This document shows positions 22,745-47,700 of a DNA stretch of 64,000 nucleotides, in pieces. The position numbers and the translations under genes are program-made. The DNA comes from an uncultured Planctomycetia bacterium (GTDB taxonomy: Bacteria > Omnitrophota > Gorgyraeia > Duberdicusellales > 4484-171). The notes beneath the pieces were generated by a model, which ran no database searches, was not told the origin of the DNA, and saw only the letters and a list, made by a program, of their open reading frames with translations. Each line of letters starts with the position of its first letter. The stretch's first letter is position 1. Location: positions 97,824 through 161,823 of the forward strand of contig CAZHYN010000001.1 in NCBI GenBank assembly GCA_964536865.1, given 5' to 3'.

Positions 22745-22836
22745 AATTCTCCTTTTTAGAAAATTGGTTTTAGGGTTTATATTTTTTCTTGAGAATAACT
22801 TTAGGGAGTGATAAAATTCTCTCAAGTTTTATTAGT

Positions 22837-22911
22837 TGCCCGGTGGTGCAACCGGTAACACGCTTGGCTCTGGACCAAGTATTCCTGGTTCGAATCCAGG
22901 CCGGGCAGCCA
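22837..22911 (+). tRNA. tRNA-Gln (anticodon CUG)
   Basis: Cloverleaf read by eye. Acceptor TGCCCGG/CCGGGCA, 3-bp D stem, anticodon stem CTTGG/CCAAG with loop CTCTGGA (anticodon CTG), T arm CCTGG-TTCGAAT-CCAGG, discriminator G, encoded CCA. Architecture resembles bacterial tRNA-Gln. Confidence 0.8.
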
Positions 22912-22984
22912 CTAAAAATATCCCTCTTCTGAGGGATATTTTTATTGAGTTGTCTGTGACTGATTTGAACTGTTTATTTGCGCG

Positions 22985-23194
22985 ATGTGGTATTTGTATA
23001 TATGTAAAAAAGGTGACAAGCTATACACTGGGATAACAACCAATCTCAATAATCGACTACGTCAACATCAGCAGGCTGAGTTGTTATATAGAGAGACTTT
23101 TCCAAATAAAAAAGAAGCGGCCTTACGTGAGCGCCAGATAAAAGGATGGCGCAGAGAAAAGAAGATTTCTTTAGTCTATCGCGGAAATAAATAG
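22985..23194 (+). CDS. small GIY-YIG nuclease domain protein
   Basis: 69 aa with GIY-YIG signature (WYLYICKKGDKLYTGITTNLNNRLRQH...E). Confidence 0.7.
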   Translation: MWYLYICKKGDKLYTGITTNLNNRLRQHQQAELLYRETFPNKKEAALRERQIKGWRREKKISLVYRGNK

Positions 23195-23221
23195 TGAGTT
23201 TACCCTGAGCGAAGTCGAAGG

Positions 23222-23241
23222 GAATCCAGGCCGGGCAGCCA
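23222..23241 (+). repeat. 20-bp direct repeat of the tRNA-Gln 3' end (att-like)
   Basis: GAATCCAGGCCGGGCAGCCA is identical to tRNA positions 22892..22911. Confidence 0.75.
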
Positions 23242-23355
23242 ATTTTGCAGGGCAAAATTGGCAGAGCAATTGAGCAATAGAGAATAGAACAATAGAGTTG
23301 ATGCTCAATTGCGGTCTATTGGTCAATTGTTCTATTGTTCAAATAAGGTTTCTTT

Positions 23356-23616
23356 ATGGCATTTCTTTTCAATAAGCTTGAGGTGTACCAGAAAGCAGTT
23401 AATTTAACCGATAGAATAACCTTTTTAACCGAGAAATTCCCCAGAGGAACATATTACCTGTCTGAGCAATTAAACCGGGCGGCTTTGTCGATTTCGTTGA
23501 ATATTGTCGAAGGCAACGGAAGGTTTCACCGTAAAGACCAGCAGAATTTTTTTAGAATAGCCCGCGGTTCTGCCTTTGAATGCTTCCCTATAGTAGAGCG
23601 AAAAAAGGGTGTGTAG
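23356..23616 (+). CDS. four-helix-bundle protein (23S rRNA intervening-sequence protein family), probably C-terminally short
   Basis: N-terminal LEVYQKAVNLTD...FP...QL.RAALSI..NIVEG motif typical of the family. Confidence 0.65.
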   Translation: MAFLFNKLEVYQKAVNLTDRITFLTEKFPRGTYYLSEQLNRAALSISLNIVEGNGRFHRKDQQNFFRIARGSAFECFPIVERKKGV

Positions 23617-29979: not shown

Positions 29980-30693
29980 ATGAAAAATAAATCAAAACAA
30001 CGTAAAGTTTATGAGAAAGCAATAAAAAATTGGCCAAAGGACGAACGTCCCAGAGAGAAGCTTTTTAAATTAGGAGAACACAAACTTTCCAATACAGAAC
30101 TTTTAGCTATTTTGCTTCGCAGTGGTATAAAGGGAGAAAGTGCTGTTGACCTGGCAAGAAGAATCATTCAAAAATTCAGAACTTTCAGAAATATGAGCCA
30201 TACAGATATAAGAGACTGGAAAGAATTTAAAGGTTTAGGTCAGGCAAAAATAGCCCAGATTAAAGCAGCAATTGAAATAGGAAGAAGATTTAGAGAAGAG
30301 GAAATAAAAGAAAAACCTCCTCAGATAAAATCCTCCTGTGATGTTGTAGAAATTATGATGCCAAGAATGAGAGACTTAAAGAAAGAAGTATTTAAAATAC
30401 TCCTTCTAAATTCCAAAAACAGGATTCTTGATATTGTAGAAATAACTCAGGGCACAGTAAACCAGGCAAACCCCATAATAAGAGAAATATTTGAAAAATC
30501 TTTACAATCCTATGCTTCATCCATCATCTGCGTCCACAACCATCCTTCCGGAGATCCTAAACCCAGCAAAGAAGACGAAGAATTCACTAAAAGCTTAACT
30601 AAAGCAGGAGAAATTCTAAACATAAAAGTATTGGACCATATCATAATAGGAGATGATGAATACTATAGTTTTGCTGATGAAGGGACGATATAA
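29980..30693 (+). CDS. radC: RadC-like JAB/MPN domain protein (copy 1)
   Basis: HhH-like N-terminus (LSNTELLAILLRSG) and JAMM motif HNHPSGDPKPSKED. Confidence 0.8.
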   Translation: MKNKSKQRKVYEKAIKNWPKDERPREKLFKLGEHKLSNTELLAILLRSGIKGESAVDLARRIIQKFRTFRNMSHTDIRDWKEFKGLGQAKIAQIKAAIEIGRRFREEEIKEKPPQIKSSCDVVEIMMPRMRDLKKEVFKILLLNSKNRILDIVEITQGTVNQANPIIREIFEKSLQSYASSIICVHNHPSGDPKPSKEDEEFTKSLTKAGEILNIKVLDHIIIGDDEYYSFADEGTI

Positions 30694-32590: not shown

Positions 32591-33307
32591 GTGGAAAAGA
32601 AATCAAGGCACTACAAAGTTTATGAGAAAGCAATAAAGAACTGGCCTGAAGATGAACGTCCCAGAGAGAAGCTTTTTAAATTAGGAGAACACAAACTTTC
32701 CAATACTGAACTTTTAGCTATCTTACTCCGTAGTGGTATAAAAGGAGAAAGTGCAATTGACTTGGCAAGGAGAATCATTCAAAAATTCAAAACCTTCAGG
32801 AATATGAGTCATACCAATTTAAATGATTGGAAAGAATTTAAAGGTTTAGGTCAGGCAAAAATAGCCCAGATTAAAGCAGCAATTGAAATAGGAAGAAGAT
32901 TTAGAGAAGAGGAAATAAAAGAAAAACCTCCTCAGATAAAATCCTCCTGTGATGTTGTAGAAATTATGATGCCAAGAATGAGAGACTTAAAGAAAGAAGT
33001 ATTTAAAATACTCCTTCTAAATTCCAAAAACAGGATTCTTGATATTGTAGAAATAACTCAGGGCACAGTAAACCAGGCAAACCCCATAATAAGAGAAATA
33101 TTTGAAAAATCTTTACAATCCTATGCTTCATCCATCATCTGCGTCCACAACCATCCTTCCGGAGATCCTAAACCCAGCAAAGAAGACGAAGAATTCACTA
33201 AAAGCTTAACTAAAGCAGGAGAAATTCTAAACATAAAAGTATTGGACCATATCATAATAGGAGATAATAAATATTACAGTTTTGCTGATGAGGGAAAAAT
33301 AAGGTGA
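32591..33307 (+). CDS. radC: RadC-like JAB/MPN domain protein (copy 2)
   Basis: Near-identical to 29980..30693 after the first ~10 codons. HNHPSGDP motif. Confidence 0.8.
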   Translation: MEKKSRHYKVYEKAIKNWPEDERPREKLFKLGEHKLSNTELLAILLRSGIKGESAIDLARRIIQKFKTFRNMSHTNLNDWKEFKGLGQAKIAQIKAAIEIGRRFREEEIKEKPPQIKSSCDVVEIMMPRMRDLKKEVFKILLLNSKNRILDIVEITQGTVNQANPIIREIFEKSLQSYASSIICVHNHPSGDPKPSKEDEEFTKSLTKAGEILNIKVLDHIIIGDNKYYSFADEGKIR

Positions 33308-39034: not shown

Positions 39035-40354
39035 ATGGGAGAAGAATTTAAACAAACAGAGATTGGTAAGATACCGAAGGAGTGGGAGGTGGTGAGGTTG
39101 GGGGAGGTGGTATCAGTATTGAGAAATGGGCTAACTACTAAGCAAAATAAAGAAAAGATAGGTTATCCAGTTACCAGAATTGAGACGATTTCGGACGAGA
39201 CAATTGATCAAAGTAAGTTTGGGTATCTAACAAGAGTAAGCGAAAAAGAAATCAAAGAGTATGGGTTGGTTAAAGACGACATATTGTTCAGCCACATAAA
39301 TAGCTTAGCGCACATAGGAAAGACAGCAATCTACAGAGGAATTCCTAGAACTCTGTTGCATGGGATGAATCTGTTACTCCTGCGACCAAATAAGCAGAAA
39401 GTTAATCCGGTGTTTTTCCTGATGCTATTAAGATTTCTCAGAATGAAGAAGATTTTTGCAAACATGTCTAAAAAAGCTGTAAATCAAGCCTCGATCAATC
39501 AAACAGAACTTAAGAAACTAAAACTACCCCTCCCTCCACTTCCAGAACAACAAAAAATCGCTGAGATTCTTTCAACTATGGATGAAGCTATTGAAAAAGT
39601 AGATTCTGCCATAGCAAGAACCGAACGGCTCAAAAAGGGCTTGATGCAGGAACTTCTGAATGGGAGTCTGAGAGTCGGAGAGTCAATGAGTCTAAGAGTC
39701 AGAGAGTTAGGAGAGTTTAAGGATACAGAAATCGGCAGGATACCGAAGGAGTGGGAGGTTGTGAGGTTAAAGGAAGTAGTAGATTTGCTTAGAAATGGTT
39801 TAGTTACAAAGCAAAACAAGGATGAAAAAGGTATACCTGTAACACGCATAGAAACGATTTCAGACGAGAGAATTGATACGCAAAAAATTGGCTATATTGA
39901 GAAAATATCAGAAGAGGAAATTTCAGAGTACAAACTTCAAAAAGGAGATATACTTTTCAGCCATATCAATAGTCTTGCACATATAGGAAAAACAGCAATA
40001 TATGATGGCGAACCTTCCTTATTGCTACACGGAATGAACCTGCTCCTTTTGAGACCACAGAGAACAACCATTGAGCCTTTTTACCTTTTATATTTATTAA
40101 AGTATTACAGAGCCAAGGCAATTTTCAGACACATGTCGAAAAAGGCAGTTAATCAAGCATCGATTAACCAGACAGAATTAGGTAGGCTTAGAATTCCATT
40201 TCCCCCTCTCCCAGAACAACAAAAAATTGCTGAAATCCTGTCAACTGTTGATAAAAGGCTGGAGCTATTGAGAGAGAAAAAAGAAAAATTGGAAAGAATA
40301 AAGAAAGGATTAATGAATGACCTGCTAACAGGGAAAAAGAGAGTAGTGTTATGA
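39035..40354 (+). CDS. hsdS: type I RM specificity subunit with two target-recognition domains
   Basis: Internally duplicated halves (EFKQTEIGKIPKEWEVVRLGEV vs EFKDTEIGRIPKEWEVVRLKEV). Conserved repeats LPPLPEQQKIAEILST present twice. Confidence 0.85.
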   Translation: MGEEFKQTEIGKIPKEWEVVRLGEVVSVLRNGLTTKQNKEKIGYPVTRIETISDETIDQSKFGYLTRVSEKEIKEYGLVKDDILFSHINSLAHIGKTAIYRGIPRTLLHGMNLLLLRPNKQKVNPVFFLMLLRFLRMKKIFANMSKKAVNQASINQTELKKLKLPLPPLPEQQKIAEILSTMDEAIEKVDSAIARTERLKKGLMQELLNGSLRVGESMSLRVRELGEFKDTEIGRIPKEWEVVRLKEVVDLLRNGLVTKQNKDEKGIPVTRIETISDERIDTQKIGYIEKISEEEISEYKLQKGDILFSHINSLAHIGKTAIYDGEPSLLLHGMNLLLLRPQRTTIEPFYLLYLLKYYRAKAIFRHMSKKAVNQASINQTELGRLRIPFPPLPEQQKIAEILSTVDKRLELLREKKEKLERIKKGLMNDLLTGKKRVVL

Positions 40355-40733
40355 GTAGACGGCATACAGTAAACAGTAGACAGGGAAAGGCAGAGAGATT
40401 TGAGCAGTTAGAAGTATGGAAAAAGGCACATGAGTTGGTTCTTAAAATAACAAAATTACAAAAGATTTTCCTTCAGAGGAAAAATTTGGATTAGTTTCAC
40501 AAATGCGACGTGCTGCTGTATCAATCCCTGCTAATATCGCTGAGGGATTTAAAAAGTATGGCTTAAAAGATAAGAGGAACTTTTATAACATAGCACAAGG
40601 CTCTCTTGAGGAATTAAGATACTATTTAATTTTATCAAAGGAACTTGGATATTGTGAAAATACAGATGAATTTTATAAAGCAATAGATACAATTGGGAAA
40701 ATGTTATATGGCCTTATTAAAAGTATACAGTAG
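40351..40733 (+). pseudogene. four-helix-bundle (23S rRNA IVS family) protein gene, frameshifted
   Basis: ATG overlaps the hsdS stop (ATGA). Frame A encodes MSRR...FEQLEVWKKAHELVLKITK. Frame C continues ITKDFPSEEKFGLVSQMRRAAVSIPANIAEG... Shift occurs in the A-rich tract near 40465. Confidence 0.55.
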
Positions 40734-40835
40734 GCAGTCTACAGCAAACAGGGAATTCGTTGTCAAACAATCTCCCTGCAGTCTACTGTCTACCGTCTAC
40801 TGTCTACTGTTTACAAACTCAAAGGAGCACCAAAG

Positions 40836-47055: not shown

Positions 47056-47485
47056 TTAAGCGATTTCAGGTATTCTTTAGCCCTAACTATAGGATTTATA
47101 TAAGGATTTAATTATAGTGTCTTATCTCTTTCTTTGTAACTATCTTGTTTTTGGGGATAAAAGAAGGTTTTGCCCATATAAAGAGTCTTTATTTTATTAC
47201 AATATCGCCAGTGGCAGGCAACCTTTTCGTATATAGATTTAAGGATTTTTGTTCGCTGAGAGTATTGCACGGGGAGGAAGTTATTTTTCATAGAAAATTT
47301 ATTTTGAGCAGCAATGGAGTTTTTGCCAGTTTTTGTGGTCTATCTTTCAATAGGTTATACGATAATTTCTAATTATACAATATATGGCCGTTTAAATTTC
47401 TTGACACCCAACATATAGGGTTTATAATATTTACTAATTAAGTTCTTTAAATTGATCTTTGTATATTTTTCTTCTGGTGCCTTAA

Positions 47486-47700
47486 AGGCTTAATAGGGAA
47501 CTTCGTGAAAATCGGAGGCTGTCCCGCAGCTGTAATGGGGGACGAAAGGCGCTATTTTCCGAGGTTATGTCGGGATGAAGTGCCACTACCCCGACGTTAA
47601 GTCGGGATGGGAAGGCGCGCCAAGTAGATTGATCCCAGAGCCAGAAGACCTGCCAGAAGAAAGGTGAAGTAGAATTATCGTAGAATGATTCTACTTTTGA
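47486..47700 (+). ncRNA. cobalamin (B12) riboswitch
   Basis: AATAGGGAA, GTGAAAATCGG, CTGTCCCGCAGCTGTAA, GCCACTA...GGGAAGGCG and B12 box GCCAGAAGACCTGCC (47643..47657). Confidence 0.75.

Follow-up and report, generated by a model that had tools for sequence, protein, structure and literature searches.

The window considered here, a stretch of DNA of 64,000 nucleotides (nt; 64 kb) from an uncultured bacterium of the phylum Omnitrophota, contains a single tRNA gene, an intact tRNA-Gln(CTG) with an encoded CCA end, whose terminal 20 nt, GAATCCAGGCCGGGCAGCCA, recur exactly further downstream, on the far side of a small open reading frame (ORF) that encodes a 69-amino acid (aa) protein of the GIY-YIG nuclease family; the second copy is followed by a cluster of inverted repeats, by a truncated gene for a four-helix-bundle protein and by a variable defence island (Table 1). 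The 330 bases 3′ of the tRNA-Gln (22912–23241) are interpreted as belonging to a family of very small, site-specific selfish cassettes, of which they are one copy, a reading to which we give a probability of about two in three; the insertion is harmless because the upstream copy of the repeat completes a functional tRNA.

Table 1. Features of the tRNA-Gln locus and its surroundings, in the numbering of the window.
Feature	Position	Strand	Evidence
Sigma-70-like promoter TTGAGA-17-TAAAAT, 5′ of tRNA-Gln	22789..22817	+	Consensus scan, 10/12 matches; pattern match only
tRNA-Gln(CTG)	22837..22911	+	ARAGORN; Rfam RF00005, 59 bits
Repeat copy 1, tRNA positions 57–76	22892..22911	+	Exact match search, 0/100 shuffles
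Left-end hairpin directly after CCA, 14-bp stem (A-tract, GC core, T-tract), terminator-like	22913..22945	+	DNA fold
Panhandle (long-range inverted repeat), left arm, overlapping the start codon	22969..22986	+	16/18 nt complementary to 23178–23195
Minimal GIY-YIG nuclease ORF, 69 aa, short branch of UPF0213/YhbQ-like proteins	22985..23194	+	Pfam PF01541, E=3e-11
Panhandle, right arm, ending at the start of the right end	23178..23195	+	Inverted-repeat search, shuffles, RNA fold
Conserved right end (RE) GTGAGTTTACCCTGAGCGAAGTCGAAGG	23194..23221	+	Junction alignment across related loci
Repeat copy 2, displaced/duplicated tRNA 3′ end	23222..23241	+	Exact match search and junction alignment
Leader of four-helix-bundle cassette: hairpin GCCAATTTTGC-AGG-GCAAAATTGGC and long imperfect palindrome	23238..23342	+	Same sequence 3′ of tRNA-Gln in relatives
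Four-helix-bundle (23S_rRNA_IVP/TIGR02436) ORF, C-terminally truncated	23356..23616	+	PF05635, E=7e-22, profile positions 2–72 of 106
Variable defence island (context only, outside the cassette)	~23598..~47400 (right boundary approximate)		Pfam scans and sister-species comparison

The two occurrences of the 20-mer are the only ones in the window, none of 100 dinucleotide shuffles giving any match at ≤3 mismatches, and no third copy of the tRNA 3′ end was found on either strand of the 64 kb with up to 5 mismatches. As read from the sequence, the repeat corresponds to tRNA positions 57–76 and thus comprises the last 4 nt of the T-loop, the 3′ strand of the T-stem, the 3′ strand of the acceptor stem, the discriminator and the encoded CCA; the first base of the second copy, G23222, has in addition the role of closing the RE hairpin described below. 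An earlier note on this DNA had reported the recurrence of the 20-mer and had described the bracketed unit as carrying only the 69-aa ORF and as lacking an integrase; these observations stand, since this ORF is the sole one between the two copies with a family match and since a motif scan and tblastn detected no recombinase in the window.

The match of the 69-aa protein to the GIY-YIG family of Pfam (43.9 bits) lies well above the cut-off of 22.6, and no NCBIfam model matches the protein; an exact-protein look-up returned no further contigs and a protein cluster that has no name. A homology search with this protein yielded 59 clusters, whose members mostly count 64–75 aa, and in an alignment of 50 homologues Y5, Y14, R24, H28 and E49 either never vary or are conserved in 90% or more, the near-invariant positions coinciding with the regions of the four motifs (GIY, YIG, Arg and Glu); the catalytic role of each of these residues is presumably that of its counterpart in the known GIY-YIG motifs. 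The closest relatives of known structure are two uncharacterised UPF0213/YhbQ proteins, BH0048 (PDB 1zg2) and EF2693 (PDB 1ywl), which the profile of the family finds with E=3.8e-13 and E=2.5e-9, respectively, followed by SLX1, an enzyme that depends on SLX4 and on additional domains; the branch to which the cassette protein belongs differs from ordinary UPF0213 proteins in lacking ~12 residues after the QH motif. The AlphaFold model (pLDDT 91.8) has the E-E-H-E-H-H topology of a GIY-YIG fold, and in a Foldseek search with this model 1zg2 was the sole PDB match near significance (E=1.1e-3, prob 1.00, TMq 0.68). The conservation of the motif positions and the confidently predicted fold make the protein look functional.

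A full unit is composed of an optional terminator-like hairpin, a GIY-YIG gene encoding 64–75 aa, around which a long-range stem often closes, a 28-nt RE hairpin and a copy of the tRNA 3′ end. The RE (consensus GTGAGYTTRCCCTGAG-(loop)-CGAAGG, 28 nt) is welded to T-loop position 57 (or 58) of the tRNA copy and was found in >60 places among related loci, always directly before a copy of a tRNA 3′ end. The hairpin that it forms in the window (23203–23222) has a 4-bp stem P1 (CCCT/AGGG), followed by tandem G.A/A.G mismatches and by a second stem P2, of 2 bp and variable in sequence, with GAA as its loop, and at other loci P1 is replaced by TCCT/AGGA, CACT/AGTG, CGCT/AGCG or CCCC/GGGG. Among 27 distinct 33-nt versions of the RE five of the six pairs change on both sides, covariation of this degree being reached in none of 500 shuffles, and 95% of the cells are paired, a fraction that falls to 33–61% in slid controls. 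The outermost pair makes use of tRNA position 57, and where the copy has an A there its partner in the RE is a T. Neither the RE nor the leader of the four-helix-bundle cassette matches any Rfam family, only the tRNA passing and all other scores lying far below the gathering thresholds.

Compensatory changes of this type are compatible also with an RNA. In the IS200/IS605 TnpB/IscB systems a right-end scaffold is followed by a guide provided by the flank of the target, and we know of no precedent for an RNA-guided GIY-YIG enzyme. The combination of a conserved right-end scaffold with ~20 nt of flanking target mirrors this omega-RNA logic (reviewed in PMC13565253), so that the RE hairpin and the 20 nt following it might be regarded as a guide RNA directing cleavage of tRNA genes that match the flank; the probability of this being the case is minimal, inasmuch as a catalytic core of 65–75 aa is far too small to hold a guide, the scaffold hairpin has only ~19 nt and the duplication would be left unexplained.

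The opposite end of the cassette is less constant. In the window the left-end hairpin folds with −12.8 kcal/mol (z = −8.3), a simple terminator scan making no call, and most related units likewise have a strong hairpin, differing in sequence, right after the CCA; the hairpin is absent in several units located behind Gln-TTG, Arg and Gly tRNAs and is therefore not essential. The left and right ends of the cassette are unrelated to each other, there being no terminal inverted repeats. The long-range stem (panhandle), whose arms are complementary in the window to an extent equalled in 0 of 200 shuffles, with 0–2 of 200 for the panhandles as a group, is present in the minimum-free-energy fold of the RNA. 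ORF-enclosing panhandles are found also at other loci (L004, L015, L018, L039 and L044 in our numbering of the comparison loci) with arms that differ in sequence from locus to locus and with the same geometry as in the window, the right arm ending 0–3 nt before the RE and the left arm overlapping the start codon; weaker, 9-nt matches occur in L033 and in L020/L055 (3, 2 and 4 of 200 shuffles), where the right arm ends 4 and 13 nt before the RE. The possibility of pairing between the left region and the tRNA 3′ end, which would give an acceptor-like or RNase III stem, was dropped, such pairing being confined to a minority of loci and the window being negative (67 of 300 shuffles equal to the observed value).

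A scan of one genome per GTDB species yielded 80 loci with GIY-YIG homologues, from Desulfobacterota, Planctomycetota, Omnitrophota, Patescibacteria and other phyla, one of them (L011) belonging to the cultured Desulfacinum hydrothermale DSM 13146. Fifty-six of these are close homologues of the short type, defined by a protein at least 50% identical to the query, and 49 of the 56 have sufficient upstream DNA. According to ARAGORN a tRNA on the same strand ends 25–400 nt upstream of the gene in 38 of the 56, to be compared with 16 of the 24 more distant “long” homologues, 11 of which have a tRNA downstream as well, and with just 4 of 66 distant homologues from phages. At ~27 short-type loci the gene is followed by an exact copy, 17–24 nt in length, of the 3′ end of its own local tRNA; in nearly all cases the copy begins 20 nt from the tRNA end, the exceptions being five loci with 19 nt and one with 23 nt. 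Eight tRNA species are used in this way (Asn-GTT in the majority of cases, then Gln-CTG, Gln-TTG, Arg-ACG, Arg-CCT, Gly-CCC, Ser-TGA and Leu-TAA), the units always having the same orientation. Since the duplicated sequence differs from locus to locus, it must be taken from the local target and not carried along as a fixed motif, and the recurrence of the same unit behind eight tRNA species, each with its local 3′ end duplicated, suggests that the cassette family is aimed at tRNA genes.

The extent of the duplication is equally informative. It amounts to 20 nt where the tRNA gene encodes the CCA and to 17 nt, ending at the discriminator (position 73), where it does not; thus, the left limit of the duplication tracks the end of the tRNA gene and not a fixed 20-nt ruler. 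In L004 and L009 both the tRNA gene and the copies are devoid of CCA, so that the copies must derive from DNA; mature tRNA, considered as a primer or as a template, was rejected on these grounds.

Full units form tandem arrays in L012, L017, L022, L025 and L043, and a tandem array is found in L004 as well. L036, L052, L057 and L004 contain units of ~95 nt that have no ORF and consist of the left part and the RE; these miniatures lack exactly the segment enclosed by the panhandle and lie within arrays, downstream of the tRNA and upstream of a full unit. The short-type family was not found in viral contigs, where only distant long-type relatives occur, rarely near tRNAs. Taken as a whole, these comparisons of sequences indicate that the unit is recurrent and not the scar of a decayed island.

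Some other arrangements were encountered in the same set of loci. A longer GIY-YIG type (~76–80 aa) lies repeatedly between tRNA-Arg(TCG) and tRNA-Lys(CTT) in Microgenomates and their relatives (L051, L059, L072, L075 and L078), with no detectable duplication of the tRNA, a conserved position in a tRNA cluster and not a duplicating arrangement. In L003 (1735–1785) and L048 (3905–3950) what precedes the cassettes is just the 3′ two-thirds of a tRNA-Asn, from the anticodon loop onward; the integration of a larger island into the anticodon loop upstream, with displacement of the 3′ part of the tRNA and of its cassette array, would be expected to leave such an arrangement. Finally, by a count made from the coordinates, the assembly ends <300 nt from the GIY-YIG gene or at the tRNA in 16 of the 80 genome loci, and L002 (10252 nt) stops 15 nt short of the tRNA; such frequent contig ends at the unit are consistent with repeats or mixtures of alleles breaking the assemblies.

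The existence of unoccupied sites, proposed beforehand as a check, could be verified directly. A scan of metagenomes for the junction predicted at an unoccupied site (T-loop through CCA and then ATTTTG) returned six loci, and in four of them, L083–L086, nothing separates the tRNA-Gln from the leader of the four-helix-bundle cassette. In L083 and L084 the tRNA-Gln(CTG) is followed by the GCCAATTTTGC-loop-GCAAAATTGGC hairpin, by the palindrome beginning with AGAGCAATTGAGCAATAGAG and then by a four-helix-bundle (23S_rRNA_IVP) gene, in upstream contexts unrelated to that of the window, and in L085 and L086 the sequences break just past the junction. Removing from the window the unit and one copy of the repeat generates a junction that is found in nature. 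Furthermore, a syntenic sister species (L087, L088 and L158), whose DNA is 85–88% identical over era-trmA-cheC-cheC, does not have the GIY-YIG unit; in its place L087 and L088 have 105 unrelated nt and a 28-nt copy of tRNA positions 49–76, after which the same leader follows. The unit is polymorphic between close relatives, and the finding of the empty site together with the sister species devoid of the unit favours mobility over the refuting case named in the note, a conserved tRNA-flanking duplication without such polymorphism. In L087 (4218–4345) and L158 (6613–6741) the tRNA-Gln ends with CTA instead of CCA and the 105-nt insert holds two small hairpins; this insert with its 28-nt tRNA copy could be either an att scar or a tRNA-like remnant. 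No synteny was found between the window and the other Omnitrophota loci that have the unit at a tRNA-Gln (L004 and L015).

These data bear on the possibility that the unit is an immobile module of the host, e.g., a nuclease or transcript-processing device residing behind tRNA genes, the second 3′ end of the tRNA being a functional RNA element. The copies present on different tRNAs are old (70–75% identity), selection acts on the ORF, on the RE and on the panhandle, and the RE with its 20 nt would be co-transcribed with the ORF; presence and absence in sister species, empty sites, arrays containing decaying copies, ORF-less miniatures and pseudogenes, the patchy distribution across phyla and eight tRNA species, and contigs that often break at the unit are hard to reconcile with immobility, and we regard this explanation as very improbable.

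Also relevant to the locus is a further group of sister Omnitrophota strains (Era 91% identical; L155–L157, 13705–17700), in which a 3.7-kb element lies directly after the same tRNA-Gln. This element encodes a 554-aa large serine recombinase, whose ORF as called overlaps the tRNA on the opposite strand, as well as an HTH_17 protein, a LexA-like repressor and a sigma-like protein, and is followed by a 5′-truncated four-helix-bundle gene; no second copy of the tRNA was found within 7 kb of it, and it has no sequence in common with either the unit or the island of the window. The presence of a serine-recombinase element at the same tRNA-Gln qualifies the locus as a general hot spot.

A block of identity running from the T-loop to the 3′ end of the tRNA is the classical “T-loop sublocation” of integrase sites. 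The repeat of the window has precisely this layout, like the site of phage Ms6 (PMC1762012), so that the two copies could in principle be the attL and attR sites of a tyrosine or serine integrase, left by a decayed island or by a non-autonomous satellite that an integrase encoded elsewhere moves in trans, with accretion as in cis-mobilizable elements (CIME); the serine-recombinase element of the sister strains, the 28-nt partial tRNA copy 105 nt downstream of the tRNA in another of them and the tandem arrays, which resemble accretion at att sites, as seen at Dehalococcoides ssrA (PMC3146451), can all be quoted in favour of this view. On the other hand, the unit is equally tiny at ~50 loci, some units having only 95 nt; one and the same RE abuts eight different tRNA sequences, each of which the core of an attP would have to match; integrase motifs were detected by the crude motif scan in just two of the 80 loci (one of tyrosine type and one of serine type); the window has neither a recombinase nor a third repeat; and the serine-recombinase element of the sister strains is unrelated in sequence. 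An origin by integrase is thus unlikely. Of the two alternatives originally envisaged for the locus, namely a minimal integrase-less GIY-YIG insertion at the tRNA 3′ end and the proximal att site of a decayed larger island, the former is sustained by the eight tRNA species, the empty site and the sister species lacking the unit, whereas the latter has to contend with a second copy welded to the RE, with the absence of a third copy and of an integrase, and with an island that starts only ~356 nt further on.

The inverted repeats located past the second copy had been noticed from the beginning and are real. They comprise the GCCAATTTTGC/GCAAAATTGGC hairpin (23238–23262), which makes use of the GCCA of the tRNA, and a long imperfect palindrome (23263–23342), with a DNA folding energy of −26.7 kcal/mol (z = −7.5). 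Described at first as a palindrome-rich junction, they are no junction scar and represent the conserved leader of a separate, neighbouring cassette, the same leader following the tRNA-Gln in L083, L084, L087 and L088 with a first stem that is kept while its loop varies (AGG, CCCC, AAA or TGGG). The four-helix-bundle ORF behind the leader has homology to L084, L087 and L088 only as far as ~23597; its full-length relative in L084 has 114 aa and is followed by a remnant resembling a right end (GTGAGTTTACC..GAAGGAAATCC), and the L087 gene is followed by GTGAGCTTGC and a hairpin. Since full-length relatives of the four-helix-bundle gene carry right-end-like sequences downstream, the GIY-YIG and four-helix-bundle genes look like alternative cargo of one type of cassette. 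This reading fits a published survey of the rRNA genes of the Candidate Phyla Radiation (CPR), in which GIY-YIG and 23S_rRNA_IVP ORFs were both found within non-intron insertions (PMC11270868). The four-helix-bundle gene adjoining a tRNA-Gln(CTG), with its leader, occurs in several unrelated contexts, the full-length relatives ending in a right end of the type GTGAGYTTRC.

As to the way in which the cassette would spread, the preferred scheme is one of homing, or nick-primed copy-in. The nuclease would introduce a nick or a cut into the T-loop region of a tRNA gene that is not yet occupied; the end exposed in this way, a 3′ end at position 57, would anneal to the identical 57–76 segment that lies beside the RE of an occupied copy or, when a new tRNA species is invaded, would pair instead with the conserved GA(G/A)TCC; the annealed 3′ end would then prime leftward synthesis through the cassette, and the nascent strand would re-anneal where homology resumes, i.e., at the end of the tRNA gene, leaving a duplicated tRNA 3′ end. 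A copy-in of this kind would explain the exact right junction, the left limit at position 73 or 76, the intact tRNA and the miniatures, which would be mobilised in trans, and tandem arrays would arise because the healed tRNA remains a target.

A similar geometry would result if the unit were a retroelement comparable to short interspersed nuclear elements, the GIY-YIG protein nicking the bottom strand at 56/57, a reverse transcriptase (RT) supplied in trans copying the RNA of the cassette from its 3′ RE hairpin by target-primed reverse transcription (TPRT) and a second nick, made at the end of the tRNA, giving rise to the duplication. The exact 3′ junction at the RE, the conserved 3′ hairpin, the fixed orientation, the ORF-less copies and the target duplication all fit, and GIY-YIG endonucleases serve such a role in the eukaryotic Penelope-like elements (PMC8557442). 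Such an origin is nevertheless quite improbable, considering that no reverse transcriptase is found in or near any unit, the units holding nothing but the GIY-YIG ORF, that the miniatures are internal deletions which keep the left part and not 5′ truncations, that the lack of CCA in copies of genes without CCA excludes an involvement of mature tRNA, and that neither poly-A nor any other RT signature is present.

Several facts weigh against a nuclease cassette that homes to tRNA genes. The protein is a catalytic core only, without a DNA-binding or extended recognition domain, and GIY-YIG enzymes are hydrolases, not strand-transferases, so that the joining must be left to host repair; furthermore, the healed tRNA keeps the presumed target, for which reason the nuclease must be restrained or must read the flank as well. 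The closest pairs of elements on different tRNA species are only 70–75% identical and their homology starts at the ORF, so that jumps between tRNAs would have to date far back or be infrequent and vertical descent could account for much of the distribution; a recent cross-tRNA jump that would fix the left boundary was looked for and none was found among these pairs. A few copies reside at non-tRNA sites and have only the right-hand tRNA fragment (L061 and L030). Moreover, the data fit either a true target-site duplication or a cassette inserted at 56|57 that supplies a replacement 3′ end of its own; the resemblance of the left-end hairpin of L010 to the sequence following the last copy in L044 and L055 hints at the latter. 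Enzyme activity, cut site, movement and copying pathway are here deduced from the arrangement of the sequences.

The variable defence island had been thought to start directly after the second copy of the repeat; this is not the case, since 23238–23597 belong to the four-helix-bundle cassette and the homology to the sister species ends at ~23597. The island begins ~356 nt past the second copy, inside the truncated four-helix-bundle gene, and the sister species differs downstream of ~23597, the content of its island not being the same. The island genes comprise SocA/HTH, Fic, two RadC, Schlafen/AlbA, a type I restriction-modification system (hsdMSR) and SIR2; the motif scan and tblastn of the window revealed no recombinase in the island, and no distal repeat was found either. 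No leftover of the missing C-terminus of the truncated four-helix-bundle gene bounds the island, the sole other gene of this family being an unrelated copy (40455–40718). The latter, situated between hsdS and hsdR, encodes a protein 42% identical to that of L084 and is flanked by inverted arrays of an octamer, GTAGACAG/CTGTCTAC (40345–40385 and 40735–40815). The two RadC-like JAB genes (29980–30693 and 32591–33307) have near-identical Pfam scores, are 2.6 kb apart and flank a Schlafen/AlbA_2-HATPase_c_4 gene. Core genes resume after the island with a B12 riboswitch-nrdDG unit and TetR-RND efflux genes, the cobalamin riboswitch (47458–47671, 107 bits) lying directly 5′ of nrdD-nrdG, which encode the anaerobic ribonucleotide reductase and its activase.

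In comparison with known systems, the cassette works most like a free-standing homing endonuclease gene and looks like a T-loop integrase site, failing one defining feature of each, the recognition domain and the recombinase, respectively. With SegB of phage T4, a GIY-YIG homing endonuclease encoded in a tRNA cluster (PMC2330249), it shares a stand-alone GIY-YIG gene of variable presence beside tRNAs and a spread presumed to occur through break-induced copying from an occupied allele; presence and absence at a conserved target, typical of homing endonuclease genes, are seen here in the empty sites of L083–L086 and in the sister species. The Seg proteins differ in that they have ~200 or more aa with DNA-binding domains, as opposed to the 69-aa catalytic core of the cassette, and their genes lack a terminal hairpin, a target duplication and ORF-less derivatives; the cassette family, in turn, is a chromosomal one, the phage contigs having yielded no member of it. 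With the integrase sites at T-loops, such as those of Ms6 and of Dehalococcoides ssrA (PMC1762012, PMC3146451), the cassette has in common the direct repeat (20 of 20 nt in the window), the regenerated tRNA and the tandem arrays; as a rule, however, it has no linked recombinase, it measures 0.1–0.35 kb and it presents one conserved end to many tRNA sequences, and neither a linked recombinase nor a distal att site of the ~24-kb island was found in the window.

The intervening sequences (IVS) and non-intron insertions of rRNA genes, described in Coxiella (PMC4990558) and surveyed in the CPR (PMC11270868), are alike in being short, in having terminal stems and the same two small families of cargo, and in targeting genes of structured RNAs at the tips of stem-loops, the four-helix-bundle gene being accompanied here by the same type of RE; they differ in being located within the rRNA and in being removed from its transcript, whereas the cassette is left outside a tRNA restored by the duplicated 3′ end. 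A tRNA counterpart of these insertions is not described in the literature searched. Miniature inverted-repeat transposable elements (MITEs) are comparable because their ORF-less miniatures keep the ends, and non-autonomous deletion derivatives are indeed found in the cassette family; the cassette has neither terminal inverted repeats nor a DDE transposase. The Penelope-like elements (PMC8557442), which combine a GIY-YIG nuclease with an RT, resemble the cassette in that the nuclease goes together with duplication of the target and an exact 3′ junction; the cassette has no reverse transcriptase. From both types of element it is further distinguished by a duplication of no fixed length, which is set by the tRNA (17 or 20 nt) and not by the stagger of an enzyme.

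No prior description of GIY-YIG cassettes with duplication of the tRNA 3′ end was found in the full-text literature searched, which misses most subscription journals, and the family is apparently undescribed and widespread. Only tentatively, as a view more doubtful than not, can it be considered a distinct class of prokaryotic mobile elements, 0.1–0.35 kb in size, defined by the RE, provided with interchangeable cargo and homing by nick-primed copying into the loops of structured-RNA genes, the tRNA being healed by the 3′ duplication. If this were true, it would constitute a new mechanism of insertion and would provide a long-missing account of the spread of rRNA intervening sequences and of the UPF0213 and 23S_rRNA_IVP genes.

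From a practical point of view, the reading as selfish cassettes, if right, would account for the recurrent assembly breaks and for the pseudo-att repeats at tRNAs, which island-finding software may misread as integrase sites, and it should be borne in mind that a duplication of a tRNA 3′ end is in itself no evidence for the action of an integrase. Many small and ignored genes annotated as “GIY-YIG nuclease family” and “four helix bundle” in uncultivated Omnitrophota, Desulfobacterota, Planctomycetota and Patescibacteria would turn out to be parts of a single kind of selfish cassette whose target and ends are both defined. The UPF0213 fold would gain a testable biological role, the cassettes adjoining tRNAs would be tied to the intervening sequences of rRNA, and a very small nuclease would become available whose cut in the universally conserved T-loop box may be precise and defined by either structure or sequence.

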